This document shows, piece after piece, positions 39,355 to 57,678 of a DNA stretch of 64,000 nucleotides (positions are counted from its first letter, which is position 1; every line of letters begins with the position of its first letter). Location: IMG/VR virus record IMGVR_UViG_3300042549_007727; one strand, given 5' to 3'. The position numbers and the translations under genes are program-made. The stretch comes from a virus. The notes beneath the pieces are model-generated. The model was not told where the DNA came from, made no database searches, and was given only the letters and a program-made list of their open reading frames with translations.

Positions 39355-40534
39355 TATACGATTCTCCATCCATATGTAGATCCAACAAATCTAACTACTA
39401 TCGATGCCTTATCGACGTTTAGAATCATGTTTTCAGCTCTTCCTTCGATAAGTTCGTCTCCCCTACCTAAAATTAGACCATTTCTTTTGAAAGACTGCTC
39501 TAAGTCAATTATAGCAATAGAAACACCAATCTGAGGATCTTCTGGCAGAATTAGAGTAAAACTTCCGTTACTTGTATCAACAAGGAAACCTTGATTTGCT
39601 AAGGCCGGGGCTGCAGGAGTTGCATTTATATAGCTCCAGTTTCCATAAGCAGTTCCTCCACCTACACCTACCCAAGCGTTGTCATAGTATATGTATGTGC
39701 TTCCAAGCTGAGAGTTAAACCAAGTATCTCCCTGCTCTGGATCTGCTGGTGGAAGTTCGCTAGTGTAGTAAACCGCATCCGGGCCGGTTGGACCGGTTAC
39801 GTTGCTAGGAGCACCTGTTGGTCCCGTAGGTCCCATTGGGCCAACTATAGTGTCTCCCTTAGCACCAACCGCTCCAGTATCTCCAGTCGGGCCGGTTGCA
39901 CCAGTTGGTCCTGTAATACTAGCACCCTGAGGTCCGGTTGGTCCCACTGAACCAACTGCACCAGTTGGTCCTATAGGCCCTTGAACTCCATTAAAACCTA
40001 TAGCTCCTTGAGGGCCTGTAGCACCCGTTGGACCAGTGACCGTTGAGGCCGCTCCTGTTGCACCCGTAGCGCCTGTAGGACCAGTTGGACCAGTATCACC
40101 TATGCCACCGGGCTCTCCGACCAAACTTCCAATTTGTGCCCATTCAGAGGTAAACCAACCAAAGAGAGCTCCGTCAACTACATAAAGATCTCCCTCTTCA
40201 CCTGTTGGATGTGCTAGTTCAAATTCTGCATATGTTTCGTAGTACCCCAAAATAACAAGAGGCTCTCCTATTGGGCCAGTAGATCCTGTTGCACCCGTTG
40301 GTCCAGTAGATCCAGTCGGCCCAGTTGAACCAGTAGGTCCTACTAAACCAGTTGCGCCTGTCGCACCAGTTGCGCCTGTCGGGCCTGTTGCACCAACAGC
40401 TCCGGTAGCACCAGTTGGGCCAATAACTCCAGTCCGGACAATACTCCACACGGAGCCGTTCCACTTCCAGGTGCTGTCACCTGAGGTAAATACGTCATTG
40501 ATAGACGGGGAGTTTGGGAAATTAATAGCGGTCA

Positions 40535-40535
<1 letters not shown>
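39354..40535 (-). CDS. collagen-like fibre protein
   Basis: MTAINFP module, GXT tracts, and a C-terminal [13 protein letters not shown]...IAIID domain. Confidence 0.8.
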
Positions 40536-44369
<3,834 letters not shown>

Positions 44370-44441: not shown

Positions 44442-45116
44442 CTAGCCTTGGGCATTACCCTGCTTCCACTCCTCCTGTTGAATTCTCTGCTCTTCTCGGA
44501 CTTTTTCAATCTCTGCTTCCCACTCTGCTAGGCGCTCCTCCGAATACACGGATTCGGCATAGTCCCAAAAAGCCCCTATAGTGTGCCGGGTCCCTGATTC
44601 TACCTTTTTAACCTGATGCACGTTTAGGATGCCTCCGGGGAACGTAATTAGCTGCCCGGCTTTAGGCTTAATTGTCAGATCGTGATCACGGAAGTCTAGC
44701 TCCCCACCCTCATAATCATCATTTATATATAGAAGACATACCAATTTGCTCTTTTCCCAGGCTGACCAGTTGCCTTCCATATCTGTGTTGTCAGAGTGGA
44801 ATGGTGCATATGCACCTTTTTCCCACTTCTGGGCATGATTAGAGACTGACTTTACTGGACGTTCATGGGCATCCTCTACATACTCTTGGAGCCTGTCAGC
44901 AAGTTTACCCAAATAGTCTCTGGGTAGCCCGTATTTTTCTAGGTTTGGGTCATCTGGAAGAATGCTCATGCCATATGACTCATAAAAAGCTGACATACTC
45001 CATGGGTGATCTGGGTCATTAAAGTAGTTTATAATTTTTTGTTGGTCTTCTAGCGGGATAAAATCATCATAATAAATGATGTCATCTTTAAAAAATTGTT
45101 TATTTTTATCTGTCAT
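44442..45116 (-). CDS. 2OG-Fe(II) oxygenase (prolyl 4-hydroxylase-like)
   Basis: HSD...YINDDYEGGEL...HQV...R. Confidence 0.9.
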   Translation of the reverse strand: MTDKNKQFFKDDIIYYDDFIPLEDQQKIINYFNDPDHPWSMSAFYESYGMSILPDDPNLEKYGLPRDYLGKLADRLQEYVEDAHERPVKSVSNHAQKWEKGAYAPFHSDNTDMEGNWSAWEKSKLVCLLYINDDYEGGELDFRDHDLTIKPKAGQLITFPGGILNVHQVKKVESGTRHTIGAFWDYAESVYSEERLAEWEAEIEKVREEQRIQQEEWKQGNAQG

Positions 45117-45573
45117 TTTTACTATCTCCTGTGTAGCCAGTATTTAGGAAAAATCTTTCTGGGTCAAAACGCTGGTTGTCTTTAGAGAACAGCTTAACAG
45201 TCTCTAGTATTAGATAATTGTAACTGTCCGAAGCCATACCGTCTTTTATGCTATTAAGTATCTCCGACATTTTATTGTAGTCATCTCTAACAAATACGCA
45301 CTCTCCTCCCCGGGGTCGTTTTAATATCTTTTCATGAACTCTACCGGTAGGTTCATATAACGTTACAGTCAAAAATTCCTTAGCAAAACCCCAGTCTGTG
45401 TAGGCTGCGTAGCCAGTTGCGGCGTCTATTGCATTGTCATAAAAGTATATAGATCTGGCTGGAGACTCCCCGTCGCGGGCAACTGTGAGCATGTAAGAGT
45501 CTCCAGCGCCTCTAGATACTTTAGCTTTATATTCTTCAACAAGTACGCCATTGATAGCGTTTAGTTCGTTCAC
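45106..45573 (-). CDS. hypothetical protein embedded in oxygenase cluster
   Basis: Overlaps both neighbours; C-terminal DNQRFDPERF motif. Confidence 0.65.
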   Translation of the reverse strand: MNELNAINGVLVEEYKAKVSRGAGDSYMLTVARDGESPARSIYFYDNAIDAATGYAAYTDWGFAKEFLTVTLYEPTGRVHEKILKRPRGGECVFVRDDYNKMSEILNSIKDGMASDSYNYLILETVKLFSKDNQRFDPERFFLNTGYTGDSKNDR

Positions 45574-46448
45574 TCTAAATAGCTATCTTTTAGTTCGCCT
45601 GACTCTAAGAGTCTGTAATATTCTCCAATAGTCATTCTTTGGTGGAGTACCGGATCTTGAATGGTTAAATCTCTTCTTTTTCTTCTAACTTTTTCAAGCT
45701 CTTCGAAAGCTGGACCGTATTTTTCTTTTAATCTTTTATAGTCTTCAGATGCTTCCTCTTCAAAAATCCAATACAGTCGGACCATATATTTTGAGGCTTT
45801 TTTAATATTCATTACCCCGTGGTAGTACGGCGGGGTAGATGGGAACATTAAGATATCTCCTGCTTCTGGTTTGTAAAATATTTCTTTGACTACCTTTTTA
45901 TTGTCTTCCGGGTCAGTTATTCTAAAGTTTATATCCCCGCCCTCATAGTCGTCATTTAGATAGACAACTGCAGTTATCCCAAACTTTTCTCCTGGGTACT
46001 CTGCTATTTCTTGTTGGTAGTCTGTATGATGTCTCATGGTTCTACCATCGTTGTCCGCCTCGTTAAACTCTGGTACATCTGGAAAATACCTAGCAACCCC
46101 CCAAGTTGGAGCCTTCCATGACGGCAAATAAGTTTTAGTTTCGTTTATGTATATGCTTGACGCATCATAAAAAAGATCAGCAATCTTTCTTTTATAGGGG
46201 TCTGGTTCTTCGGAAAACTCCTTAGTCCAGGCTTCTTTAGTCGGGAATTCTGTGGTTGTGCCCCAAGAGAGACCTGAATCAGCTATCATTTCCCCAAAAA
46301 TAAACCAAGACACCCAGCGGGCTTTTTGCTCTGGGTCTGTAAGATAATAATCTATATATTCTTGAGGATTTTTTACCCATTTATTAAAAATCCATATTTT
46401 ATCGTCTAGTTTTTTTATATTTAAACTTTCTAAGGTTGTATCATCCAC
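45570..46448 (-). CDS. 2OG-Fe(II) oxygenase (prolyl 4-hydroxylase-like)
   Basis: HTD...YLNDDYEGGDI...YHGV...KY. Confidence 0.9.
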   Translation of the reverse strand: MDDTTLESLNIKKLDDKIWIFNKWVKNPQEYIDYYLTDPEQKARWVSWFIFGEMIADSGLSWGTTTEFPTKEAWTKEFSEEPDPYKRKIADLFYDASSIYINETKTYLPSWKAPTWGVARYFPDVPEFNEADNDGRTMRHHTDYQQEIAEYPGEKFGITAVVYLNDDYEGGDINFRITDPEDNKKVVKEIFYKPEAGDILMFPSTPPYYHGVMNIKKASKYMVRLYWIFEEEASEDYKRLKEKYGPAFEELEKVRRKRRDLTIQDPVLHQRMTIGEYYRLLESGELKDSYLE

Positions 46449-46450
46449 TT

Positions 46451-47095
46451 TTAGTCTGCACTTCCTGTTTTACTGTTATTCTTCCAGTGGTGGGTTATTA
46501 ACATTTTTCGGCCCTTTACTATTTTGCAAGACTGGTGAAGATATGGCAAGGTAGATGGGAACATGACAACGCTTCCGGCTTTAGGCTTAATTTTTATGTC
46601 AATTTGAGGATCAACAAAGTAAAGCTCTCCACCCTCATAGTCGTCATTTAAGTACACTACTATTGTGTATGTAATATCTGAGTTGTGCTCATTCCAGTCA
46701 ACGTGGGGGCCCATATACTGACCTTCAAAATATTTATTGATTCCGTACTTTGTCTCTGGAAAACGTAAAGCATGGTCCGCAAATGACAGCATTTCTTCGC
46801 TAATGTTGTACAGTTCAGCGTACTTGCTTGCGCAAGATGACATACTAGATATAAGAGTATTGAGGACGCGATCTGCAGTAGTTTTAGTTGCTAGATCGGA
46901 CTCGATGTCTAGTAGTTTTTTCTGCATATACTTAATCTCGCCGTATGGATCTGTCTCTGTTCCATACCCATACCAAGTATTCCACTCTGTAATTGCAACA
47001 CTATTAGTAGACTCTATATCAGCTATTAATTTATCGATGTTATCTATTACCCCGGGGAAATAGACAATTTTGTCATAAGGTATTTCGTAGTTCAC
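46451..47095 (-). CDS. 2OG-Fe(II) oxygenase (prolyl 4-hydroxylase-like)
   Basis: HVD...YLNDDYEGGEL...LHQS...RK. Confidence 0.9.
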   Translation of the reverse strand: MNYEIPYDKIVYFPGVIDNIDKLIADIESTNSVAITEWNTWYGYGTETDPYGEIKYMQKKLLDIESDLATKTTADRVLNTLISSMSSCASKYAELYNISEEMLSFADHALRFPETKYGINKYFEGQYMGPHVDWNEHNSDITYTIVVYLNDDYEGGELYFVDPQIDIKIKPKAGSVVMFPSTLPYLHQSCKIVKGRKMLITHHWKNNSKTGSAD

Positions 47096-47097
47096 GG

Positions 47098-47874
47098 CTA
47101 CTCCGACGTGAGCTGCTCTGCATCATCAGCAAGTTCCGCTGATCCAGCATTATATTTCTTACGATCTTCTTCATTGTTTATGTCAAAATCATCAATAAAA
47201 ACAAAACCAGGAAAAATGTACTTATCTCCCTTTTTCATTTCGTGTACTCGGTGCATAAATGGGTGGGTAGACGGGAATATTAAAGCTGATCCTGGTTTTG
47301 GTTTTAGCCAAAAATCAATTCTGTCTTTATTTCGTGGATCGTGCACATCTTCTAGTGGCTTCATCTCTGAGTACTTAGGGTCTCTTAGGTCATAGTCTCT
47401 AATTGCAAAAGAGATTTCCCCGCCCTCGTAGTCCTCGTTTAGATATAAAACTATGGAGTACTTTAGAGTTCTATCTCCAGCCTGAGCATCAAAGTGAGCA
47501 CCCATAGAGCAGCCTTCTATGTATTTCATAATTCCCACAAACGGAGACATGTTTGGGGATCCTTCTAGATTTCTATCTCTGTAATATGCTTCAGCAACAT
47601 CAGTCACTGCCTTTTTTATAGCAAATATTGCAGTTTTTACATCTTCTTTTCTGGGAGATGTTAAATTTTCAATTGCATCTGGATTAAAGTCTTTTTTGCC
47701 CCCAAATTCATGGTAGGACTTACTGTTGGATAGCCAAGGCCCCCATGGTGGTATAGCTGGGTAAACTGACTCGTCTGAGTCAAGCTCCTCTATTAGCGCA
47801 ATTAGCTCTTCTGGATTAGCAATTACGTCTTGGTAGTAAAAAACTTCTTCGTGTAGTTTTTCAGCTAAAAACAT
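47098..47874 (-). CDS. 2OG-Fe(II) oxygenase (prolyl 4-hydroxylase-like)
   Basis: HFD...YLNEDYEGGEI...MHRV...KY. Confidence 0.9.
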   Translation of the reverse strand: MFLAEKLHEEVFYYQDVIANPEELIALIEELDSDESVYPAIPPWGPWLSNSKSYHEFGGKKDFNPDAIENLTSPRKEDVKTAIFAIKKAVTDVAEAYYRDRNLEGSPNMSPFVGIMKYIEGCSMGAHFDAQAGDRTLKYSIVLYLNEDYEGGEISFAIRDYDLRDPKYSEMKPLEDVHDPRNKDRIDFWLKPKPGSALIFPSTHPFMHRVHEMKKGDKYIFPGFVFIDDFDINNEEDRKKYNAGSAELADDAEQLTSE

Positions 47875-47928
47875 GTCTTTCCTATCTACGGTTTAGTTGT
47901 CCTATGTACATTCTATATTAATTTGTAG

Positions 47929-48579
47929 CTATTCTTTGTTGGCGGCATCTACTATTTTTTGGGGTATATTGCCTAAAACATTAGTTACGTACTTTACCCC
48001 GCTGTTTATGGTCCTGGACTCATGTAAAAATGCAGCAGGAAATATAACTATGCTTCCTGGGGTCGGTTTTATAGCGACCCCCTTGTCCGGGAAGCTTAGC
48101 TCTCCGCCTTCGTAGTCGTCATTAAAGTATATTGATGCTGTGTACTCCACTGGGTCTAGTGATTCTGAGTCAGGGTGAGGCCCTAGGTGCTCGCTATCAA
48201 AATATTTTTTTATTGCTATATGATCGAGTCCGGAGTCTCGATATTTAGATGCCCAGGTAGTAGCAGTTTTTTCTGGCAGCCCTATTGCTCGGTAGTAGTC
48301 AGCAAAAGAGTTGTCTAACGCTGTATATATGTTATAAATCACGTTAGAAACTTGATCTTTAACTTTAGCGTCTGATTCAAGGTTATTTTTGCTTGGTGTT
48401 AGTTCTTTCATTAGACCGTATTGATGAACATTATTGGAACCACCTGAGAGCCAAGGCAGCCACTCACCGGCAGCAATACTATTTGTATTCTCTAGTAGTT
48501 CCACGACATCAGCAGGAGTTTTTAGTGCATATGGAAAATGTACTATTTTTTCTGCTATAAGTTCGTAGTTTGATGTCAT
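47929..48579 (-). CDS. 2OG-Fe(II) oxygenase (prolyl 4-hydroxylase-like)
   Basis: HPD...YFNDDYEGGEL...LHES...KY. Confidence 0.9.
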   Translation of the reverse strand: MTSNYELIAEKIVHFPYALKTPADVVELLENTNSIAAGEWLPWLSGGSNNVHQYGLMKELTPSKNNLESDAKVKDQVSNVIYNIYTALDNSFADYYRAIGLPEKTATTWASKYRDSGLDHIAIKKYFDSEHLGPHPDSESLDPVEYTASIYFNDDYEGGELSFPDKGVAIKPTPGSIVIFPAAFLHESRTINSGVKYVTNVLGNIPQKIVDAANKE

Positions 48580-49257
48580 TTATGGCTGCTTATCTCCGGT
48601 GTGTTTTAGAATGGTCCAAAAAAATGGACTAACATATCTAATACCAGATATAACTTCGGTGACTCCATGAATATAGTTCATGTCTCCAGGGAAAAAGTAT
48701 GCTGCACCTCGTTTAGGTTTAAACTGGATTCCTTGATTAGGGAAATACAGTTCTCCACCTTCATAGTCATCATTTATGTAGAATAGTCCAGCAATGTCAT
48801 AGTACGGAAAGTCGTTTGGTTTTCCTCTATTTTCGCCTTCATGTAGTTCTTTGTCAGCGTGAGGATTTTGATACTGTCCCGGTAACCATCTAACTAAAGC
48901 TGGTGGAGTTGGTAGGGCATCTACTTTTAAGAATTTGTCCACTTCGAGCTTAAGTCTTTGCTGCATGCCCTCAATAACTTCTAGTACTCGAGGATCTGAC
49001 TTATTTAAGCTATTTGTAGTTGCTACTCGATCCTCCCAGTAAGACGCGTCATATATGCATACGCCATCTTCGTTATAGTGTGACTCGGTGTAGTCCCAGA
49101 TGGTATTATTTCTAGCAAAATTGTCTAAAAACTCCAGCTCTTCGTCGGTCATAAAATTTTCTAGAGTCACAATATTGTTAGCAGAATCTCCAAAAAACCC
49201 GGAGGGGGTTATAGAAACTCGCTCATTGAACTGTAAGTTATTGTTAGCTGCATCCAT
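48580..49257 (-). CDS. 2OG-Fe(II) oxygenase (prolyl 4-hydroxylase-like)
   Basis: HAD...YINDDYEGGEL...IHGV...RY. Confidence 0.9.
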   Translation of the reverse strand: MDAANNNLQFNERVSITPSGFFGDSANNIVTLENFMTDEELEFLDNFARNNTIWDYTESHYNEDGVCIYDASYWEDRVATTNSLNKSDPRVLEVIEGMQQRLKLEVDKFLKVDALPTPPALVRWLPGQYQNPHADKELHEGENRGKPNDFPYYDIAGLFYINDDYEGGELYFPNQGIQFKPKRGAAYFFPGDMNYIHGVTEVISGIRYVSPFFWTILKHTGDKQP

Positions 49258-49273
49258 AGTTATATCCTACTCC

Positions 49274-50005
49274 CTACTCGTATGTACGACGAGTCCAGAC
49301 TTCCTTTTGGTAGACTCCTCCGTTTGGTACTCGGTATTTGTTGCTATTTTCTTGATTCTTTTTGACCATTTCTTCATAGCTAATTTTTGTTTCTACTTCA
49401 GAAATCCAGTTTTCTCTTTTAAATGGAAGGATCTGCGCATACGGAGTTCCTGCTGGTATGACTCCCGAAAAACCTTTAGCTATAAAAAATGGCATTGTGC
49501 CTGGAAGATGTACCTTGTCGTTATCAATTACTCCGCTAGTTGTCAGAAAAGGTAGCTCAAATCTGTTAAATGGCTGGGCATAAAGTGCGCTGTATCCTTC
49601 TGGTAGTTCTACTGCCCAGTCAGACCACCAAGCAAAGTGTTCTTCATGATATCCGGACGGTGCTACAAACTGAGACATCGGTGGTCGTTCCCCTACAAAG
49701 TCTTGCATTTGAGGATTTAGAACTTTTATTTTAGGTTTGCCGGCTACCTCTAAAATTTCTATGTCGCAGGGGGTTCTATACACATAACCGGTGCCCATGA
49801 TGTCGAAAACTGCAGGGCATGCTTTCCAAGTAGGAATCTTGCCGCCGTCTCGGGGATCCACCCAGTGTTCATTTGTGTGGGGATTTACTGCAAAACGATC
49901 AGCTTTTCTGTACCACTCTGGAATTGTTTTTATTGTAGGTTTAGGGGCTGAGGGGCTGTCTTTAGTTAGCCAAGGTCTATTAACTACAAATTTAATTTTG
50001 TTCAA
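49274..50005 (-). CDS. DUF6065-related protein
   Basis: IPEWY...TWKACP..FD...GY...LPEGYS....P.N...LPF...SGVID.D...IPAGTP.AQ..PFKRE.W. Confidence 0.6.
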   Translation of the reverse strand: MNKIKFVVNRPWLTKDSPSAPKPTIKTIPEWYRKADRFAVNPHTNEHWVDPRDGGKIPTWKACPAVFDIMGTGYVYRTPCDIEILEVAGKPKIKVLNPQMQDFVGERPPMSQFVAPSGYHEEHFAWWSDWAVELPEGYSALYAQPFNRFELPFLTTSGVIDNDKVHLPGTMPFFIAKGFSGVIPAGTPYAQILPFKRENWISEVETKISYEEMVKKNQENSNKYRVPNGGVYQKEVWTRRTYE

Positions 50006-50753
50006 GGTCCCCCTCCTGAGTAGCCTCTACTTCATAAGTGTTTTTAGTTACTGGGCACGTGACAGTTTTTAACTTAATTTTTTTTGTTTCGTGGTGACCT
50101 ACTACGTCTCCCCGATAGTCTAATCCGTCTCTATACATTTTTGACCAGTCGCCAACTCTATTTCTGAGCTCTAAAGCAGCGCCATACCTTTTTACTTCGT
50201 CCCAGTGGTCCTGGCCAACATATTCATCAGATATTTGTAACTCATAGTCGTTTTCTAATGATGTTAAAGATATTGGCATTACCGAAGCTACAGGAGTGCC
50301 AGCTGGGATGGTAATTTCTATGTTTGGTTCTGTGACTCTCCAGGCTATTGGAAGCCCGTGAATATAAAAAGACGTGCTTATTAAGGTTGTATAGCAGTGG
50401 GCACCGCGAATAAACAGATTAGGGGTAGGCATTGTTAGCATAGTGGTTTGATCGTCGGTTTTAAATATCAAACCAGATACAAAACTTATAGTTGCATTTC
50501 CCCTGTTAGTGTCTACGTATTTATGTCCCTTTAGTACAGTTATGTGGTCTGGTGTGGTGTCTGTAACTCCGTCCCAAATAAAAACTATGTCTTCGGGGAA
50601 AGATATCCCCCAGCCGAGTCTATTAGTTACACTTAGGGGAAAGCACATATACGCGTGCTTTTCCGGTGTTTCATCCATCCAATCGCGTCTAGCTTCAAGC
50701 TGCTCTATGTTGGCGCAGTCTTGCTCGTACTTTTTTACATATATGCTTTTCAC
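49992..50753 (-). CDS. DUF6065 family protein
   Basis: RRDWMD.T...HAY.CFPL...N..GW.I..P.D....WDG...IPAGTPVA...P. Confidence 0.7.
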   Translation of the reverse strand: MKSIYVKKYEQDCANIEQLEARRDWMDETPEKHAYMCFPLSVTNRLGWGISFPEDIVFIWDGVTDTTPDHITVLKGHKYVDTNRGNATISFVSGLIFKTDDQTTMLTMPTPNLFIRGAHCYTTLISTSFYIHGLPIAWRVTEPNIEITIPAGTPVASVMPISLTSLENDYELQISDEYVGQDHWDEVKRYGAALELRNRVGDWSKMYRDGLDYRGDVVGHHETKKIKLKTVTCPVTKNTYEVEATQEGDLEQN

Positions 50754-51511
50754 TAATTTCCTGTTTCTTCATAGAACTGAGGAGTGTGAAACTTTTCTGA
50801 ATAGTCAAGCATGGTTACCATAGAGTACTTAGTCCCAGACTTCACTGGCATTGCTCTGTGTGGGTACATAAAGTTTGACGGAAATACGTAGAGATCGCCC
50901 TTCTTAGGCTTAATTGTGATGTTCTGAAGTCTAAAATACAACTCTCCACCTTCGTAGTCGTCATTGGGAAACCCGACTAGTGACACTACGCAGTTATATG
51001 AGTACCCGTGATCGTGGTGCTCTTGGAAGTGTTGTCCGGGGCCGTACTTAACGTAGTTAGTTGCTTCCCAGTAGCGAAGCTCGCCTATGTTAAATCTTCT
51101 TGTATAGTCTTTGACCGCTTGAAGCTCTTTATACGTTACGTCATCAGCAAGCTCTTGCAGCGCAAGTCCAGCTGGCGATGTGTCATGAGCAATGTCAGAT
51201 TTTTTGTATTTAAAGTCTACGCAGTCGCGATACTCTGGCATCTTCATCGCATACCCAACCATTGCTTCTTGATATTCGTAGTGGTTGTCTGGATTAGTTA
51301 TTACCGACTCTAGTCTGTTGATTATATCTAAATCGTCTGTTAGAACGTCTCTGTACACAACAATACCTGGCGCAACTTCTTCTGAGCTACTCCATGTTTG
51401 TTTTTCTACGGTGTACCAAGCAGAGAGCCTCTCTGCAACTAATTTCTGTTTTTCAGCTCCCTCGGTTTCTTGGGGCTTATCTGAAAAGTTTTGTGTGTTT
51501 TCCATAACCAT
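50753..51511 (-). CDS. 2OG-Fe(II) oxygenase (prolyl 4-hydroxylase-like)
   Basis: VKYGPGQHF..HHD...NDDYEGGEL...PHRA...KY. Confidence 0.9.
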   Translation of the reverse strand: MVMENTQNFSDKPQETEGAEKQKLVAERLSAWYTVEKQTWSSSEEVAPGIVVYRDVLTDDLDIINRLESVITNPDNHYEYQEAMVGYAMKMPEYRDCVDFKYKKSDIAHDTSPAGLALQELADDVTYKELQAVKDYTRRFNIGELRYWEATNYVKYGPGQHFQEHHDHGYSYNCVVSLVGFPNDDYEGGELYFRLQNITIKPKKGDLYVFPSNFMYPHRAMPVKSGTKYSMVTMLDYSEKFHTPQFYEETGN

Positions 51512-51515
51512 ATCC

Positions 51516-52259
51516 TTAATACGTTAGTTTATATTCTTCAATTACTGGAGCAACTCTGTTGTTTACATTGTCTCTGTCGTTATAATCCGTCATAACTACT
51601 ACTGAGTATTTGACACCAGATTTTATGTCCTGTGACGAGTGCTCATATATGAAAGTTGATGGAAATACAAGTACATCTCCTGCTTTAGGTTTTATTGTTA
51701 AATTGTCCATTCGAGGAAACCAAATCTCTCCGCCTTCGTAGTCGTCATTTAGGTATACAACTACAGAAATTGTGCAAACATATGTTGGACCGTGATCTGC
51801 GTGTATTTTAAAGTGAGTTCCTGGCCCGTCGTACTTTACAAAATTAAATGCTTCGTACCATCTCATTCCTACGCCCCAGGAATCAGAATAATCATCTACG
51901 CATTGGCGCACTGCTTGGAATACTTTTTCATGAAGATCGTAAAGCTCCGAATTTTCTGAGTCGCGGGGGCCTAGCGATGTAGAGTTAACTTTAAAATCTT
52001 GTGCATTTCTAGCGCTTAGAAGCACATCGGCTGACGTTGTCACTCTTGCTCCACCCCAAGTATATTTACCTGTGCCGCTCAAGTTAGACTCTAAAGTTTT
52101 TATGTATTCTCTACCCTGCTCTTCTGTGATGGCCCCGCGGTACAGGTTCACTCCTAGTGCTGGATTAGACACAGTAATATTTGGGTTTCTGGGAGCAGGG
52201 CGGTCTGGCATCCGATTATTTGAAGTTTCAGATCTATCTTTTGTGAACCAGTCGTTCAT
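51516..52259 (-). CDS. 2OG-Fe(II) oxygenase (prolyl 4-hydroxylase-like)
   Basis: VKY...HF..HAD...YLNDDYEGGEI...EHSS...KY. Confidence 0.9.
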   Translation of the reverse strand: MNDWFTKDRSETSNNRMPDRPAPRNPNITVSNPALGVNLYRGAITEEQGREYIKTLESNLSGTGKYTWGGARVTTSADVLLSARNAQDFKVNSTSLGPRDSENSELYDLHEKVFQAVRQCVDDYSDSWGVGMRWYEAFNFVKYDGPGTHFKIHADHGPTYVCTISVVVYLNDDYEGGEIWFPRMDNLTIKPKAGDVLVFPSTFIYEHSSQDIKSGVKYSVVVMTDYNDRDNVNNRVAPVIEEYKLTY

Positions 52260-52313
52260 GTCTAGCCTCGCTTCTGTTCTTTAAACTAGTTTATATTTAA
52301 AGGTTGTAGCGAT

Positions 52314-52322
52314 AGTCTATCA
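52314..52322 (-). promoter_or_regulatory. putative extended -10 (TG-A-TAGACT) for oxygenase cluster
   Basis: Intergenic, about 55 nt upstream of the first oxygenase ATG. Confidence 0.35.
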
Positions 52323-52382
52323 ATAAAAAGGGAAAATGCCTAATTAAACTTGGTGTTTTACAAGTTTTTTGTAAGCTTTAGG

Positions 52383-52413
52383 CAGGCCAAGCCAGGGGTA
52401 GTGACTTAGCCTG
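52383..52413 (-). terminator. stem-loop immediately after FN3/PFFP/Hint gene
   Basis: CAGGCTAAGTCA-CTACCCC-TGGCTTGGCCTG. Two G-U pairs form only on the minus strand; no U-tract. Confidence 0.55.
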
Positions 52414-52415
52414 TC

Positions 52416-53753
52416 CTATGCTATTACTATAAAGGATCTTGTGATGAACCAAGGCTGAGGAGAAGTCTTTACTTCGTAAACTGTAGACTCAGCTTCGTCT
52501 TTTTCTATAGAGACAACTACTGTTTCTGACACTACTCCGTCTGCTGCTACTCCTAGTAGAACGTCTCCTATTTCGACGTCTTCAGCGTTTTTGTAGCTTA
52601 TTCCTTCAGATTCTTTTACAAGAATTGGCTGAGTTACAGAGTAGTCCTTACCTAGATCATTAAATCCGATTAGCACGGCGGATCTAGCTTCTACTGAGAC
52701 TATCTCTGCTTCGATGAGAGCTACCTCTTCACTTAAGAAGCTGGACTGCTTAGTCTCTAATAGCGCTGACAGATCTATGTGTCGACTGTCAACCGTCAAC
52801 ACTTTGTCTCCAACTTTTACATTCTCTGCTTTTTCCCAGCCGTTTGGGGTCAGGATGTCTGTTGTTGGTGCCAAACAGAATCTTACCTTGAAGCTTGGGA
52901 AGAACGGGAACATCGGTGGGAAGAACGGTGGGAAGAACGGGAACATCGGTGGGAAGAAAGGTGGGAAGAAAGGTGGGAAGAACGGGAACATCGGTGGGAA
53001 GAAAGGTGGGAAGAACGGTGGGAAGAACGGGAACATCGGTGGGAAGAACGGTGGGAAGAAAGGAGGGAAGAAAGGAGGGAAGAATGGTGGGAAGAATGGT
53101 GGGAAGAATGGAGGGAAGAATGGAGGGAAGAATGGCGCAGTAGTAATCGACGCAGAGTAGCTAGACCACTCCGAGGCACCATTTGCATTTTTAGCTCTAA
53201 CTCTATACTGCTGAGCGGTGTTTGCTTCCTGAGTCACTGTTGCTGAAGTGCCAGTTACGTTTGAGGAGTTTGACTTACTATCGGTACTTTCCCAGTCATA
53301 TCCAGTTATGACAGAGCCGCCAGTACTAGGGGCTGACCATGAAACAATGTCTTCGCCATTACTTGTTGTTACCGTTGGAGTGTTTGGAGCCTGGGGCACT
53401 GTTGTTATAGTTACGCTTGAAGACGCGGAAGACTCAAGAGATGTTCCAGCTGAGTTTGTGGCTGTTAATACGAAGGTGTATCCGGTATTAGAGTCCAACC
53501 CGCCGACCACGATAGGGGAAGCAGATCCAGTAAGATTGGTTGCTGTTGTGTCAACAGTAGTGCCATTTTTGTAAGCAACTATGGTATATCCGGTAGCTTC
53601 TGGAGAGCCTTCTGGTAGAGCAAAAGCTACTGATGCAGCACCATTATCAAAAGCTCTAGCAGTCCCTACGTTGGTTGCAACAACATTAATTGGGGCTTTT
53701 GGCTCCAAAGAGTCGTTCTGCTGTTGGGAACGCTTACCAGGTGATTTGCTCAT
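52416..53753 (-). CDS. FN3-FN3-(PFFP)n-Hint domain protein
   Basis: Two FN3 domains (PKAPINV...YTFVLTATNSAG; PQAPNTP...YRVRAKNANG) and an 80-aa Pro/Phe/Met tract. These are followed by a Hint domain, CLAPTTDILTPNGWEKAENVKVGDKV...AEDVEIGDVL...VYEV, which ends at the stop. Confidence 0.85.
   Translation of the reverse strand: MSKSPGKRSQQQNDSLEPKAPINVVATNVGTARAFDNGAASVAFALPEGSPEATGYTIVAYKNGTTVDTTATNLTGSASPIVVGGLDSNTGYTFVLTATNSAGTSLESSASSSVTITTVPQAPNTPTVTTSNGEDIVSWSAPSTGGSVITGYDWESTDSKSNSSNVTGTSATVTQEANTAQQYRVRAKNANGASEWSSYSASITTAPFFPPFFPPFFPPFFPPFFPPFFPPFFPPFFPPMFPFFPPFFPPFFPPMFPFFPPFFPPFFPPMFPFFPPFFPPMFPFFPSFKVRFCLAPTTDILTPNGWEKAENVKVGDKVLTVDSRHIDLSALLETKQSSFLSEEVALIEAEIVSVEARSAVLIGFNDLGKDYSVTQPILVKESEGISYKNAEDVEIGDVLLGVAADGVVSETVVVSIEKDEAESTVYEVKTSPQPWFITRSFIVIA
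52896..53135 (-). repeat. coding tandem repeat: 17 x 12-nt PFFP units plus 4 x 9-nt PMF units
   Basis: Plus strand shows GGGAAGAA(C/A/T)GG(T/A) units with GAACATCGG interruptions; 240 nt, in frame. Confidence 0.95.
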
Positions 53754-53779: not shown

Positions 53780-54640
53780 TTAAGCCTTTAGGTCTCCAAA
53801 GACCAGCCAAGTGTTTGCAGCTACCTTAGTTAGGGATACTGAAGAATTTAATGCTCTAAAGATCAATCCAGGTGTATACAGAAGGTCTACAGATGCTCCA
53901 GCTACTATAGACGCGCCTCCGGCTCCTACGCTCTGGTAGAAGTTCAGGGTAGTCCCAATTGGGAAAGTGATTGAGTTGGTAGTATCTGCGTCTACTGTAA
54001 CGCTATAAGCTCCGCCAATTGCAGTCAGTGCGTCTCTGTATGTTAGAGGCTGAGGCAGGGTTGACGTAGTTGCGTTAGCTGTAATAGCTGCCTTAATCGG
54101 GGTAAGAGAAGGTACGCCCTGCAACGTCTGAGTTCCGTCTGAGAAAGCGATGCCGCTAGCACCAACGGTTACTGTTCCAGTAAATGTTGGAGATGCTTTA
54201 GGTGCAAGAGTTGTGTCAGTTGGGTGTACGTGATCTGCTCTAGCATACTTTAGAGATGTACCTGCAGCCGCCGTCCCGTTAGCCACTGGAGTGGCCGAAG
54301 CAGCTTGACCCACAACAAACGCAGTAGTTGCGAGCTGCGTGTCATTCTGGTCAGCGGTAGCTGTTGGAGCTGTTGGTTCTCCTGTAAAAACTGGGCTGAC
54401 AAGTGGTGCCTTAGCGTCTAGCTGAGTTTGAATTGAAGAAGTTACGCCATCTAGGTATCCGACCTCTGTAGACGTTACTGGTGATGCTACTAAGTACCCA
54501 TCTTCATCCGAAATAATGTCGCGATCGACAGTGTACTTAGCGCGGTCCGGGGTCCAAACTTCTCCCGACCAAAGCCAAGTTCTGCCATTGTAGGTATATG
54601 CGTCACCAACTTCTGGTTCTGCAGGAAAGTTAATTGCCAT
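53780..54640 (-). CDS. fibre protein with MAINFP N-module and C-terminal adaptor-like domain
   Basis: Start reassigned to ATG 54640 (TAATG overlap). Contains [23 protein letters not shown]...TQLATTAFV, YARADHVHP and FPIG...TWLVFGDL. Confidence 0.75.
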   Translation of the reverse strand: MAINFPAEPEVGDAYTYNGRTWLWSGEVWTPDRAKYTVDRDIISDEDGYLVASPVTSTEVGYLDGVTSSIQTQLDAKAPLVSPVFTGEPTAPTATADQNDTQLATTAFVVGQAASATPVANGTAAAGTSLKYARADHVHPTDTTLAPKASPTFTGTVTVGASGIAFSDGTQTLQGVPSLTPIKAAITANATTSTLPQPLTYRDALTAIGGAYSVTVDADTTNSITFPIGTTLNFYQSVGAGGASIVAGASVDLLYTPGLIFRALNSSVSLTKVAANTWLVFGDLKA

Positions 54641-57600
54641 TATGCCTGTGCCTCTGTCCATGATAGACGACCGGTAAATCTAGCTGTGTTGGATCCGGAA
54701 GATGTGTTTGTTACAACAATCGTAAGAACGTCCGGCCCATCCGGGTATATTCCTGTTCTAGATGAAGAACTTCCTCCACCAAGAATTGAGTTTCCAAGGT
54801 CGCGTAGAGTTCTTAGCGAGATAGAGTCTGTACCCTGAGACAAGAAACCACCAGTGATTTCTCCACCAGAAACAGTGACGTTACCGTTTACACTGTAGTC
54901 AGCAATCTGAGCTAGCGAGGAGTTAGCTGTGCCTGCATCAGCAAAGTTTGGTATAGTCCATGTTGCAGATACAGACGGCGTTGCGTTTAGGTAGGCTCTT
55001 ACTAGATAGTTTGTACCAGCATCCTGCGTACTCACGCCGAGCTCAGAAAGCTTTAGCTGCATTCTGTTAATTAGCTCTCTTTGGCCGAATAGGGCACCTA
55101 CACCGTTATCGGCTGAAGGAGCTAGTCTCACGGCAAATAGAGCTTTAGATTGTCCAGGAAGAATTGAAACAGGATTAGTTTGACCATAGGTGAAGATAAG
55201 AGAGTTATCCTCATCAAAACGACCATCCATAATCACCGAGGTACCCCAGTGGGAAATCGAAGGTGCGAATGTTGGGTATGCCAACTCTACTGAGGTAGGA
55301 GATGGGGCGCTGTAAGTGTATGCCTTAGCTTCAGCACCCATCGGTGCAAATATCAACGTTGGGTTAGATCCAGTAAGAGCGGTGTTTAGCGTGATAACTG
55401 TTCCAGCTATGTTGGTTATGTAAGCACCGTCCGGCACTGGGCTAGGGGATGCGCTAGAAAATACGCGCTGGCCAACTTGAAGTCCAGTGGCACTAGCAAC
55501 AATTCCTGAGTTTGACCCAATAGTCCAAGTGGAAGAGACACCAGAAGCACCAGCTTTACCACGGACTAGTCCAGTGAAGGTAGTTGCTGTCTTGCCTGTG
55601 TAGTTTACATACTCGCTAAATAGTCCAGCTTCGTTGTTTGTAGTACTAGGCTTGATAATTAGTGTTCCTGTAGGAGGGAATCCGGCGGTAGATAGAACAG
55701 TTAATGTTTCTCCTGTGTCCGACAAGCTAGCATCTAGTCTAGTTGTCGGTGGCAGTGTTGAAGTTTCGTAGCGAGCTGGCAAGTTACCAGAGCGCATGTA
55801 CGCTTCGTTGTTAACGTTGTTATTCTTCATCTTGTGGACGTAGAATACGTTACCGTCTATACCACGTAGGCCCCAGCGGATAAAGCCGGCACCGTACCAG
55901 GAGTAGTCTACATAGAACATTTGCATCTTAGTAAAGTCAACGTTAAATCCTGAAGGACCGGTACCGTCTGCTTTATCTAAGTTCCACTCAGACTGAGGGA
56001 TTCTAGTGTCTATGGTTTTTGAGATATTTACGTGATCCGCGCTAGCTCCTCTGTAGGAAGGCGAAATTGTAAAGTTTGGTGTAACTGACAGATCATCAAT
56101 AGCAATTACTCGGTATGACTGGCCCCGGATAATTACGTAATCTCCAGGGATTAGCTGACTGGAGTAAGAAGTCGGGAATGACTCGTCTGTTCTAGTTACT
56201 ACGTTAGATCCCTGAACTACTGATGAGCGTCCTGATAGCTGCTGGGTAGATGAGCGCTTTACTACATACGCGTCTTGTCCGTCAATTTCCCAGAAAAGTC
56301 CGTTTTGAGCATCAAAAGTTCCTAATCTAGTGCTTGATCCGTACCATGATGTTACGTTTAGGTTTACAATTCCAGTAGCTGGACTAGTAGTGGATTCTGG
56401 TAGCTCGTAAGTAAAAGTATTAAAGCTAGTTACCTGATCTACTGAAAAAGTGCCATTATATGCCGCCTCATTTGCACCGGAAACCAAAATTGAAGTGCCA
56501 GGCAGAATGTTGTGCTGCTCTTTAGTTGTAACTGTCGCGGTAGTTCCAGATGAAGTAATACCATCAATAGTTGCATATGGCTTAAGGATTGTTCCAGACG
56601 AAACCTGTAGACCCTTACCTGACTGGTATCTAAAATAACGACGGGTTTGTCTAATAGCCTGTTCGTAGTTAGAGCTAGCGTTAGTTGAGAATAGAACTCC
56701 ACCGTCGAAAGATCTGTGTAGGAACTGAGCCTGAGGACGTACATAAATAGACGCGTTTGTTGCAGTCAAGCCAGACGGAGTGCCTTCGGTTGGGTCTGCG
56801 TAGAATACAAATGTTGTTGGAGTTGCTACAGTTGCAACTCGATAAGCTCCGTTAGGTGGGTTAGTACCTGTGATACCAGCAGTAGCTATGGTGTTACCAA
56901 TAGAAAGACCGTGGGGCACTGTAGTAGTTACAGTTACTTTTAAGCCAGATACGGCTAGAGTAGGTGCTCCACCAATTCTTGCATCAGTGTAGATTACCGC
57001 TTCATAGATGGCAGTCTTGTTTGGGTCAAGAATTGAGGTAACGGTGGTCTTGTTTTGGGCGCGACCTAGGTAGGTAAATGATGCAGTACCACCACCGGAC
57101 TCAATAATAAAGTTTCCATTGCCAGCAGCAAGGAAGGTGTCCTGAACTGTAATCGCTGTTCCTGTAGGAGGGGCTACTCCAGCTATAGCTGAACCTGAGG
57201 TCCATACCTCTGTTCCAGTTGTTGCATTTACTACAGAAAATGTAGTTGAAGTTAGTGTTCCAACTATTTGAAATGTTCCGTTGTAGCCTGAAACAGAAGA
57301 TCCAGATATAGTTACATACTGTCCAGATCTAAATCCATGAGAGGATGAGGTTGTGTAGGTTACATATCCTGTAGATGGAGTGCTTGGGTCTGCACCAGTT
57401 ACAGTTTTAGTAGTTGTAGTTAGAGCTACAGTAACAATTCTTGCATCTGTATTCATTGTCATTGAAGCTATGTTTGTCATTGGGGATGCAACCTGGAAAG
57501 CAAACGGCCTATTGTTAGTTACACCTAAGTTTTCCCATTTCGACTGCTGGGTACCATACTCGAAGTCGGTATCAATAAGCGCTTGAGCGGTTGAGGTACG

Positions 57601-57678
57601 TAGTTTATTTACCGGATCGGTAAGAACTTCTGTTGGGTTAAAACGGCCATCTGATGCCGGAAACTGTTGAATACTCAT
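54640..57678 (-). CDS. ~1000-aa beta-rich virion structural protein (paralog 2)
   Basis: Colinear homolog of 36358..39354 with the same C-terminus, WTEAQA. Confidence 0.75.
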   Translation of the reverse strand: MSIQQFPASDGRFNPTEVLTDPVNKLRTSTAQALIDTDFEYGTQQSKWENLGVTNNRPFAFQVASPMTNIASMTMNTDARIVTVALTTTTKTVTGADPSTPSTGYVTYTTSSSHGFRSGQYVTISGSSVSGYNGTFQIVGTLTSTTFSVVNATTGTEVWTSGSAIAGVAPPTGTAITVQDTFLAAGNGNFIIESGGGTASFTYLGRAQNKTTVTSILDPNKTAIYEAVIYTDARIGGAPTLAVSGLKVTVTTTVPHGLSIGNTIATAGITGTNPPNGAYRVATVATPTTFVFYADPTEGTPSGLTATNASIYVRPQAQFLHRSFDGGVLFSTNASSNYEQAIRQTRRYFRYQSGKGLQVSSGTILKPYATIDGITSSGTTATVTTKEQHNILPGTSILVSGANEAAYNGTFSVDQVTSFNTFTYELPESTTSPATGIVNLNVTSWYGSSTRLGTFDAQNGLFWEIDGQDAYVVKRSSTQQLSGRSSVVQGSNVVTRTDESFPTSYSSQLIPGDYVIIRGQSYRVIAIDDLSVTPNFTISPSYRGASADHVNISKTIDTRIPQSEWNLDKADGTGPSGFNVDFTKMQMFYVDYSWYGAGFIRWGLRGIDGNVFYVHKMKNNNVNNEAYMRSGNLPARYETSTLPPTTRLDASLSDTGETLTVLSTAGFPPTGTLIIKPSTTNNEAGLFSEYVNYTGKTATTFTGLVRGKAGASGVSSTWTIGSNSGIVASATGLQVGQRVFSSASPSPVPDGAYITNIAGTVITLNTALTGSNPTLIFAPMGAEAKAYTYSAPSPTSVELAYPTFAPSISHWGTSVIMDGRFDEDNSLIFTYGQTNPVSILPGQSKALFAVRLAPSADNGVGALFGQRELINRMQLKLSELGVSTQDAGTNYLVRAYLNATPSVSATWTIPNFADAGTANSSLAQIADYSVNGNVTVSGGEITGGFLSQGTDSISLRTLRDLGNSILGGGSSSSRTGIYPDGPDVLTIVVTNTSSGSNTARFTGRLSWTEAQA

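Follow-up and report, generated by a model that had tools for sequence, protein, structure and literature searches.

Arrays of prolyl-hydroxylase-like oxygenases accompany a candidate proline/aromatic-repeat substrate gene in uncultured phages

The closest precedent for a virus-encoded prolyl 4-hydroxylase (P4H)-family enzyme with a candidate substrate in Pro-rich repeats of the same genome is found in PBCV-1 (P4H A085R, PDB 5c5t), a eukaryotic giant virus that has one such enzyme, unclustered with its substrate gene, and repeats of the PAPK/PEPPA type. In the Skp1 pathway of Dictyostelium and Toxoplasma (PhyA and Gnt1), a cytoplasmic P4H-type enzyme is followed by a Gnt1-family N-acetylglucosamine (GlcNAc) transferase, which acts on the new hydroxyproline at a single Pro in the service of oxygen sensing (PMC3515798). 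The Bacillus anthracis P4H (PDB 3itq, 5hv0) and the animal collagen P4H, prolyl 3-hydroxylases and lysyl hydroxylases share an HxD...H triad and a Lys-type ligand for 2-oxoglutarate (2OG), and have X-Pro-Gly as canonical substrate, while the bacterial intein-like (BIL) domain of C. thermocellum (PDB 2lwy) and the Hint domain of Hedgehog have a nucleophile (Cys, Ser or Thr) at position 1, the latter domain being C-terminal on the protein to be processed. Multiple P4H-superfamily paralogues are also present in marine T4-like cyanophages (PMC3037559), and few unexplained gene sets are as common in aquatic phages as arrays of 2OG/Fe(II) oxygenases, for which roles in nitrogen signalling or DNA repair have been proposed but are untested. 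Here, we describe a block of 12 genes at positions 44442-53753 of a 64,000-nucleotide stretch (the window) of the IMG/VR virus record IMGVR_UViG_3300042549_007727, in which such an array directly follows a gene encoding a proline/phenylalanine-repeat protein.

The block is encoded entirely on the minus strand (Table 1). It opens with a gene for a protein consisting of two FN3 domains, an 80-residue tract containing only Pro, Phe and Met, and a Hint domain, and this gene is followed by 11 tightly packed genes: eight P4H-type 2OG/Fe(II) oxygenases (Oxy1 to Oxy8), two DUF6065-type proteins (DUF6065a and DUF6065b), and one gene without a match. This gene content agrees with a first-pass annotation made from the letters of the DNA, as does the position of the block between fibre genes, with a tail-fibre-like gene upstream and fibre-assembly-like and collagen-like genes downstream. 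We propose, with moderate confidence, that the Pro/aromatic repeat protein, as part of the fibre module, is the dedicated substrate of P4H-family enzymes of this cassette, which would hydroxylate its prolines; glycosylation of the hydroxyproline, in relatives, and processing by the Hint domain would be optional further steps. Substrate, chemistry, cleavage and location in the virion are in each case predicted from sequence. As in PBCV-1, a virus-encoded P4H-family enzyme would have its candidate substrate in the repeats of its own genome, but here the enzymes form an array behind the repeat gene, the virus is a bacteriophage, the repeat is an aromatic P(P)xF unit, and a Hint domain and partners with a predicted dUTPase fold are added. 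Prolyl hydroxylation itself is known; what is new is the tie between a multi-paralogue array and an aromatic repeat, a Hint domain and these partners.

IMG/VR was sampled in three independent ways: with the tract protein as a query, with DUF6065a and Oxy1 as queries, and with a degenerate DNA pattern. All seven relatives obtained with the tract protein (7/7) have the order tract gene, Oxy1, Oxy2, DUF6065a, DUF6065b, Oxy3, and then variable oxygenases. For arrays seeded from the enzymes (DUF6065a or Oxy1, 39-76% identity), the count was limited to those with at least 2.5 kb of upstream DNA (n = 70); a P/F-tract open reading frame (ORF) lies no more than 3 kb upstream in 69 of these, and at 3.8 kb in the last. 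The degenerate pattern, which represents PFFPPFFPPFFPPFFP and is blind to the enzymes, recovered more than 120 stretches; 72 tract ORFs had sufficient DNA downstream to be scored, and 64 of them are followed by an array gene within 3 kb. The linkage outlasts inversion of Oxy3, permuted gene order (e.g., Oxy1-DUF6065b-Oxy2-DUF6065a), inserted genes, and different upstream neighbours. Tract protein and oxygenase/DUF6065 genes are in this way reciprocally linked across hundreds of uncultured phage contigs, which bears out the co-occurrence that the first-pass annotation had proposed as a check. Arrays in this phage family contain 3-12 diverged paralogues directly behind one repeat gene. The recurrent core is comprised of Oxy1, Oxy2, DUF6065a, DUF6065b and Oxy3, usually with an Oxy8-type gene; Oxy4 to Oxy7 and the 155-amino-acid gene come and go among relatives, and the notion of eight position-specific enzymes for one tract was therefore overstated.

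The number of oxygenases varies with the composition of the tract. The comparison covered 94 distinct members of the FN3-tract protein family, each followed by 6 kb of DNA or more, with oxygenases counted within 10 kb. Where Pro makes up less than 5% of the tract, the (GAF)n type, an oxygenase is present in 0/20 (median 0); for the (FxPFG)n type, with 5-25% Pro, in 5/7 (median 2); at 25-38% Pro, in 14/14 (median 5.5); and at 38% Pro or more, in 53/53 (median 7). The two proline-rich classes together stand at 67/67. The Spearman correlation between the Pro share of the tract and oxygenase number is 0.82 (n = 94; phylogenetically uncorrected). When mapped onto a tree built from the FN3 region alone, tract type and the presence of oxygenases each show six or more changes, and the two traits change together in all five independent pairs on well-supported branches (six pairs when all branches are used), with a sign test p of 0.06, which is the floor for five pairs. 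Taken together with the linkage, this covariation supports, as comparative evidence, the earlier suggestion that the tract is a dedicated substrate, although not that all eight enzymes are dedicated to it.

The proline-poor end of this series was also approached from the DNA. A scan for an (FGA)n pattern found 61 FN3 proteins; among the 31 with at least 4 kb of downstream DNA, DUF6065b lies within 1 kb in 30, and no oxygenase lies within 6 kb (0/31), the next genes being a class II ribonucleotide reductase and the portal. Four complete or near-complete GAF-type genomes have 5-9 P4H-like genes each, elsewhere in the genome, and lack orthologues of Oxy1 and Oxy3 (best 85-90 bits, vs. 426-440 bits for the window's own copies).

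Within the tract protein, the N-terminus is conserved in relatives, and a minor tail protein family (phrog_6977) matches residues 115-206. The tract is uninterrupted and contains no Gly; six further residues after it precede Cys293 and the C-terminal domain. It had been described as (PFFP)17, and while a Pro/Phe repeat is indeed present, the strict PFFP unit did not hold: P(P)xF units describe the tract better, and in relatives x is F, Y, H, M, R, S and others, with PPxFF(A/S) forms also occurring. Tract length in relatives ranges from about 12 to 142 residues, and composition is varied. Homologous FN3-tract-Hint proteins with (FTPFG)n, (FSPFG)n or (GAF)n tracts were found via the upstream fibre gene (examples are L323:2511-4124 (P0125), L301:9691-11031 and L299:4443-6056); their Phe-Gly repeats resemble those of FG-nucleoporins, and (GAF)n, while free of proline, counts formally as a Gly-X-Y repeat. 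On other phage contigs, P/F tracts of 25-60 residues are also internal linkers of proteins of 880-960 amino acids (L175:4421-7171, L177:888-3767, L286:1238-3883) that have no adjacent enzymes, one of which also has FN3 and Listeria-Bacteroides repeat domains.

The Hint domain of the window is weak when taken alone (Hint_2, E 2e-3, below the Pfam cut-off). A family profile of 25 homologues matches the BIL domain 2lwy at E 2.4e-11, in two stretches covering positions 5-157, and several mini-inteins at 1e-5 to 1e-8; the Pfam family Intein_splicing is matched by 17/25 members, with the window copy below the cut-off. As in BIL and Hedgehog Hint domains, the nucleophile at position 1 is retained, in 43/43 homologues (86% Cys, 14% Ser; Cys293 in the window), and, as in Hedgehog, the domain is C-terminal. 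Unlike in those domains, block B reads SVTQ in the window and S-x-x-Q or S-x-x-H in the family rather than Thr-x-x-His, and the domain is dispensable in the tract family. The window protein ends in FIVIA at the stop codon, with neither a terminal His-Asn nor a C-extein, which excludes splicing; it is plausible from the sequence that the remaining chemistry is N-terminal cleavage or thioester formation at Phe292/Cys293. Many relatives end in HNK or HNRK, without a +1 nucleophile. Many others carry short, acidic or Cys-rich tails in place of the Hint domain, which is in this sense an optional maturation module and not essential to the system. The Cys-rich tails end, e.g., in ...ASCSPPCVSPFRCLAGTCAM (L026:12007-12522, L027:5583-6440, L055:3622-4164, L057:4030-4572) and may represent other kinds of C-terminal module, for instance a disulfide knot or a site for metal or lipid.

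All eight oxygenases match PF13640 (2OG-FeII_Oxy_3) at 31.8-56.5 bits, above the gathering cut-off of 27 bits, and retain the HxD...H triad and a basic 2OG-binding residue, as first noted from the translations: H153, D155 and H207 (Oxy1 numbering) are invariant, and the basic residue, ten positions after the distal His, is Lys in six (K217 in Oxy1) and Arg in Oxy3 and Oxy8. Triad and ligand are those of the B. anthracis and animal hydroxylases, which are also the best matches among solved structures. A profile of Oxy1 (A5) matches the B. anthracis P4H at 2e-6; Oxy2, whose type is found in most arrays surveyed, matches LH3 and the B. anthracis P4H; and a profile of Oxy3 (A4) matches prolyl 3-hydroxylase 1, the B. 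anthracis P4H and the PBCV-1 P4H (5c5t, E 0.05). These E-values are modest, 2e-6 being the best, and the canonical X-Pro-Gly substrate is absent from the tract. Matches to Tet_JBP are weak and below the cut-off. The nearest solved relatives are thus protein prolyl and lysyl hydroxylases and not nucleic-acid oxygenases, and a role as peptidyl-proline hydroxylases is predicted. The catalytic cores of the cyanophage oxygenases are 35-45% identical to Oxy3; unlike for those enzymes, a candidate substrate is available here from covariation. Six further P4H-type genes occur in the same genome, outside the window (G000:C1 2056-2658, 14281-14901, 15187-15822, 21614-22198, 28921-29451 and 31090-31719; L122, L123), of which one is flanked by a serine recombinase gene and a collagen-like gene, a second follows closely on a carbamoyltransferase gene, and a third abuts a gene with an NAD-binding domain.

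In 13 related loci, a few of them redundant fragments (L012-14, L095, L102, L108-112, L115, L116, L219), a gene of the PF11397 "GlcNAc" family (E 3.5e-15) lies between the tract gene and Oxy1. The transferase that attaches GlcNAc to the newly formed hydroxyproline of Skp1 is a member of PF11397 (PMC3515798), and these cassettes resemble the Skp1 pathway in pairing a P4H-type enzyme with a PF11397-family gene; they differ in their candidate target, a long repeat within a protein of the structural module. The tract proteins of these loci that were inspected have no Hint domain and end in short acidic tails. Hydroxylation of Pro followed by glycosylation, as raised in the first-pass annotation, fits the presence of this gene inside the cassette of a sub-lineage, but the window's own 128-kb record contains no PF11397 gene as far as it is assembled. 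A gene of 263 amino acids accompanies the PF11397 gene in the interval between the tract gene and Oxy1 (e.g., L112:8194-9983) and occurs without it in L090-L094; it has no Pfam match and no profile similarity to oxygenases.

In the sequence of events that we envisage, the FN3-FN3-(P(P)xF)n-Hint protein would be made in the infected cell, and Oxy1, Oxy2, Oxy3 and probably Oxy8 would hydroxylate prolines of its tract with O2, Fe(II) and 2-oxoglutarate, while the variable paralogues may extend site or position specificity. In some relatives, the Gnt1-family glycosyltransferase would then add a sugar to the hydroxyproline. Cys293 of the Hint domain would break the bond after Phe292, or activate it as a thioester, and the modified FN3-tract polypeptide would be released. 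Probably, the product is a surface appendage associated with the fibre, with a stiff, hydroxylated tract that could serve as a spacer or adhesive. Hydroxylation of Phe and cross-links, also suggested earlier, find no support. A cluster for a ribosomally synthesized and post-translationally modified peptide (RiPP) was considered and rejected: the candidate substrate is a protein of 445 amino acids with two folded FN3 domains in a tail-fibre module, and the block contains no protease or transporter, an anatomy that does not fit the RiPP-like peptide product named as an alternative in the first reading.

Of the two DUF6065 proteins, DUF6065a matches PF19541 at 93.1 bits (cut-off 26.6); DUF6065b has no Pfam match, but hhalign relates it to DUF6065a (85.6%, E 5.6e-6), it matches phrog_7084, and its Atlas neighbours carry DUF6065. 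AlphaFold models of both are confident, with a predicted local distance difference test score of 84.7 for DUF6065a and 85.9 for DUF6065b. Foldseek matches the DUF6065a model to dUTPases (E 2.7e-4, TM-score about 0.67 normalised to the target). For the DUF6065b model, Foldseek matches lie just above E 1e-3, and VIA-align gives Z 9.7 with a root-mean-square deviation of 3.1 over 126 residues, the top 22 matches all belonging to the dUTPase/dCTP deaminase superfamily and being followed by Z 5.2 and 3.9. In these predicted models, both proteins have the dUTPase/dCTP-deaminase fold. In their letters, two invariant DUF6065 stretches, G-I-I-D-N-D and P-Y-A-Q, recall dUTPase motifs 3 and 4, of which they may be counterparts. 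A DUF6065b profile (A2) has no dUTPase match at the sequence level and nothing meaningful among PDB sequences or Pfam.

Homologues of DUF6065b that are 60-67% identical stand alone, often in tandem, in the chromosomes of gammaproteobacterial metagenome-assembled genomes (Pseudohongiellaceae and others). In these loci (L127-L153, L155; e.g., L155:5983-6729, L143:5220-6732), no oxygenases, repeat protein or phage genes lie nearby, the neighbours (TonB receptor, FNR-like reductase, GT41-TPR, OmpA, QueH and others) have no common theme, and no Phe-rich tract gene is found near the bacterial genes or near the copy in a halovirus. DUF6065 is consequently not specific to the tract/oxygenase system: it also occurs alone in bacteria, and in GAF-type loci where no oxygenase is adjacent. 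Genes of the DUF6065b type adjoin a class II ribonucleotide reductase in GAF-type phages (L323:4142-7025; L342:3432-6275) and, as distant homologues, in tailed viruses of haloarchaea such as Halorubrum virus HRTV-15 (gp36-gp38; L121); this adjacency and the dUTPase-like fold are hints of a role connected with nucleotides. One of 50 distant DUF6065b matches (<60% identity) is from a cyanophage record. In proline-free lineages, DUF6065b alone keeps its place next to the tract gene; it may be a partner that acts on the Phe-rich tract, or a nucleotide-metabolism gene that chances to sit at a module boundary.

Several observations weigh against prolyl hydroxylation of the tract. The evidence is entirely one of genomic association, five or six independent contrasts are a small number, and the loci come from related phages, in which tract, Hint domain and enzymes could travel as one recombination cassette without any enzyme-substrate relation. 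Eight of the 72 ORFs seeded from the tract have no array gene within 3 kb downstream, although most of these are second tract-bearing proteins with an array elsewhere on the locus or contig (L177/G002, L224, L259), or lie on short contigs; two of the contigs concerned (37 and 53 kb, 31-48% complete) have no PF13640 gene at all. In PBCV-1, the closest precedent, the P4H is active on peptides, yet hydroxyproline was undetected in virions (PMC7019647). The six dispersed copies in this genome and the 5-9 copies per complete GAF-type genome indicate that the P4H-type class clearly has other targets in these phages. Finally, the residue common to all tract types (PFFP, PYFP, PHFP, FTPFG, GAF) is Phe, not Pro, so that the basic function of the tract is independent of proline. 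This last point also favours the alternative that the tract is left unmodified and acts as a Phe-rich linker, cohesive or hydrophobic, in the manner of FG-nucleoporin repeats, and that the linkage reflects a shared recombination cassette or hypervariable region. The internal P/F linkers of large phage proteins without adjacent enzymes are in keeping with it, as is the frequency of such arrays, with no known substrate, in hypervariable regions of aquatic phages (PMC3037559). We regard it as unlikely, because it leaves unexplained that oxygenase presence and number track tract proline in every independent contrast, and that a gene of the hydroxyproline-glycosyltransferase family stands between the tract gene and Oxy1.

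The array oxygenases could instead, or in addition, act on the downstream collagen-like G-P-T/G-A-T fibres, with the tract gene a mere neighbour. The fibre-assembly-like gene and three collagen-like genes lie directly behind the array, in an order that recurs in nearer relatives, the nearest solved enzymes are of the collagen type (B. anthracis P4H, P3H1, LH3), and another P4H-type gene adjoins a collagen-like gene elsewhere in the genome. In more distant arrays, however, collagen adjacency is lost while tract adjacency is kept. Neither a PF13640 gene nor a PFFP tract is present in the complete, 129-kb genome of phage DSL-LC01 (OQ999401.1, L290), which contains six or more collagen-like genes, and GAF-type loci that include collagen-like genes likewise lack a neighbouring array. 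In the Gly-X-Y repeats of the phage collagens, X is Pro or Ala and Y is Thr; Pro is almost never found in Y, the position (X-Pro-Gly) that collagen P4H uses. Oxygenase number, moreover, tracks tract proline. The tract accounts better than collagen for the array core, and we consider the collagen reading unlikely, while some of the six dispersed oxygenases might serve these fibres. Auxiliary metabolic or regulatory functions unrelated to virion proteins (2-oxoglutarate consumption, DNA repair, host-protein hydroxylation) have a precedent in the 2OG-linked nitrogen signalling or DNA repair proposed for many cyanophage copies (Sullivan et al., 2010; PMC3037559), and would suit dispersed copies beside non-structural genes such as the carbamoyltransferase; for the core genes, which are embedded in a fibre module, tied to the tract gene, and similar by profile to protein prolyl and lysyl hydroxylases, with Tet_JBP matches weak and below the cut-off, such functions are very improbable. 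Least probable of all, and kept as a minor alternative, is action of DUF6065 and oxygenases on nucleotides or DNA, e.g., in base hypermodification: the predicted fold of both DUF6065 proteins and the ribonucleotide reductase beside DUF6065b in GAF-type phages and haloarchaeal viruses point that way, but the match to dUTPases is lacking at the sequence level and the oxygenases are P4H-type, not AlkB/TET-type. DUF6065b and the oxygenases need not work together in any case: in GAF-type phages and in bacteria, DUF6065b is encountered with no accompanying oxygenase.

If tract prolines are hydroxylated as we propose, bacteriophages would hydroxylate, and in some lineages glycosylate, proteins of their own structural modules; the system would provide a new substrate motif for prolyl hydroxylases, a first functional context for DUF6065, and a use of Hint domains in phage protein maturation. 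A subset of the oxygenase arrays of aquatic phages gains a concrete candidate substrate from the reciprocal linkage and the dose-like covariation of Pro with enzyme number. A more far-reaching version, which we offer tentatively and think improbable as a whole, is that freshwater phages build an aromatic/proline polymer of a kind not described before, comparable to extensins or mussel-foot proteins, multiply hydroxylated by a division of labour among P4Hs, O-glycosylated in some lineages, and released or thioester-transferred to an acceptor on the virion or host surface, with DUF6065 as a new accessory class acting on the Phe-rich tract; this last role is raised by the linkage of DUF6065b even to proline-free (GAF)n tracts. 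The PFFP, PYFP, PHFP, FxPFG and GAF tracts make up a naturally occurring set of low-complexity polymers rich in Phe, which could be of interest as materials.

The window comes from an IMG/VR virus record of 128 kb with an estimated completeness of 75%. The genome has a siphovirus-type layout, with major head protein, major tail protein, tape measure, PolA, helicase and primase. The capsid proteins of this phage and of the metagenome-assembled lake phage DSL-LC01 (an Actinomycetia phage) share 68% identity, and identity to the capsid proteins of large Microbacterium phages is about 55% (PMC10611076); the source is probably an uncultured freshwater siphovirus-like phage with a host in the Actinomycetia. 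DSL-LC01 is the closest deposited genome, syntenic in the replication and fibre modules, and also has a tryptophan halogenase and glycosyltransferases. Among GenBank phages, no match was found to the block (megablast) or to the tract protein or DUF6065a (tblastn), and Oxy3 has only partial matches, to its catalytic core, in cyanophages; by these searches, no cultured relative of the cassette was found. Full-text literature searches returned no paper on DUF6065 and, among the results examined, none on this cassette.

Table 1. Features of the oxygenase block and its surroundings (positions in the window).
Feature	Position	Strand	Evidence or remark
Candidate substrate, FN3-FN3-(P(P)xF)n-Hint protein, 445 amino acids (P0001)	52416..53753	-	Translation; Pfam fn3 E 5e-9; homologues head the array in 69/70 enzyme-seeded loci
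Two FN3 domains, residues ~19-206, with conserved N-terminal peptide	53136..53699	-	Pfam fn3, 2 stretches
80-residue Pro/Phe/Met tract, residues 209-288	52890..53129	-	12/45-nt tandem repeat
Hint / bacterial-intein-like domain from Cys293	52419..52877	-	Family profile vs. 2lwy, 2.4e-11
Oxy1, core P4H-type 2OG/Fe(II) oxygenase	51516..52259	-	PF13640 E 1.9e-11
Oxy2, core P4H/lysyl-hydroxylase-like oxygenase	50753..51511	-	PF13640 E 1.3e-13
DUF6065a, predicted dUTPase-like fold	49992..50753	-	PF19541 E 2.4e-26
DUF6065b, remote DUF6065 homologue, predicted dUTPase-like fold	49274..50005	-	hhalign to DUF6065a, 85.6%
Oxy3, core oxygenase, most conserved	48580..49257	-	PF13640 E 2.9e-7
Oxy4, variable oxygenase paralogue	47929..48579	-	PF13640 E 2.6e-8; only in some relatives
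Oxy5, variable oxygenase paralogue	47098..47874	-	PF13640 E 6.7e-11
Oxy6, variable oxygenase paralogue	46451..47095	-	PF13640 E 5.5e-15
Oxy7, variable oxygenase paralogue	45570..46448	-	PF13640 E 8.7e-10
155-amino-acid accessory gene	45106..45573	-	No Pfam or PHROG match; homologues in a subset of arrays
Oxy8, oxygenase at array end	44442..45116	-	PF13640 E 1.6e-10; Oxy8-type gene in most related arrays
Upstream tail-fibre-like protein	53780..54661	-	PHROG tail-fibre families; precedes tract gene in many relatives
Downstream fibre context: tail-fibre-assembly-like gene (44010-44369) and three collagen-like G-P-T/G-A-T proteins, one of them at 42580..44010	39354..44369	-	phrog_1084/3304; Pfam Collagen E 1e-32 to 3e-18

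A scan of the block for promoters and terminators gave 13 promoter-like sites (shuffled mean 19.4) and nine terminator-like sites (shuffled mean 9.7), and defined no operon boundaries. The cassette and the collagen-like genes are flanked by two paralogous virion structural proteins of 1000 amino acids (36358-39369 and 54640-57678; phrog_5838, E ~1e-260), the upstream copy of which has a weak match to E1_FCCH, below the cut-off, and the pair is arranged as if the fibre module had been duplicated around the cassette.

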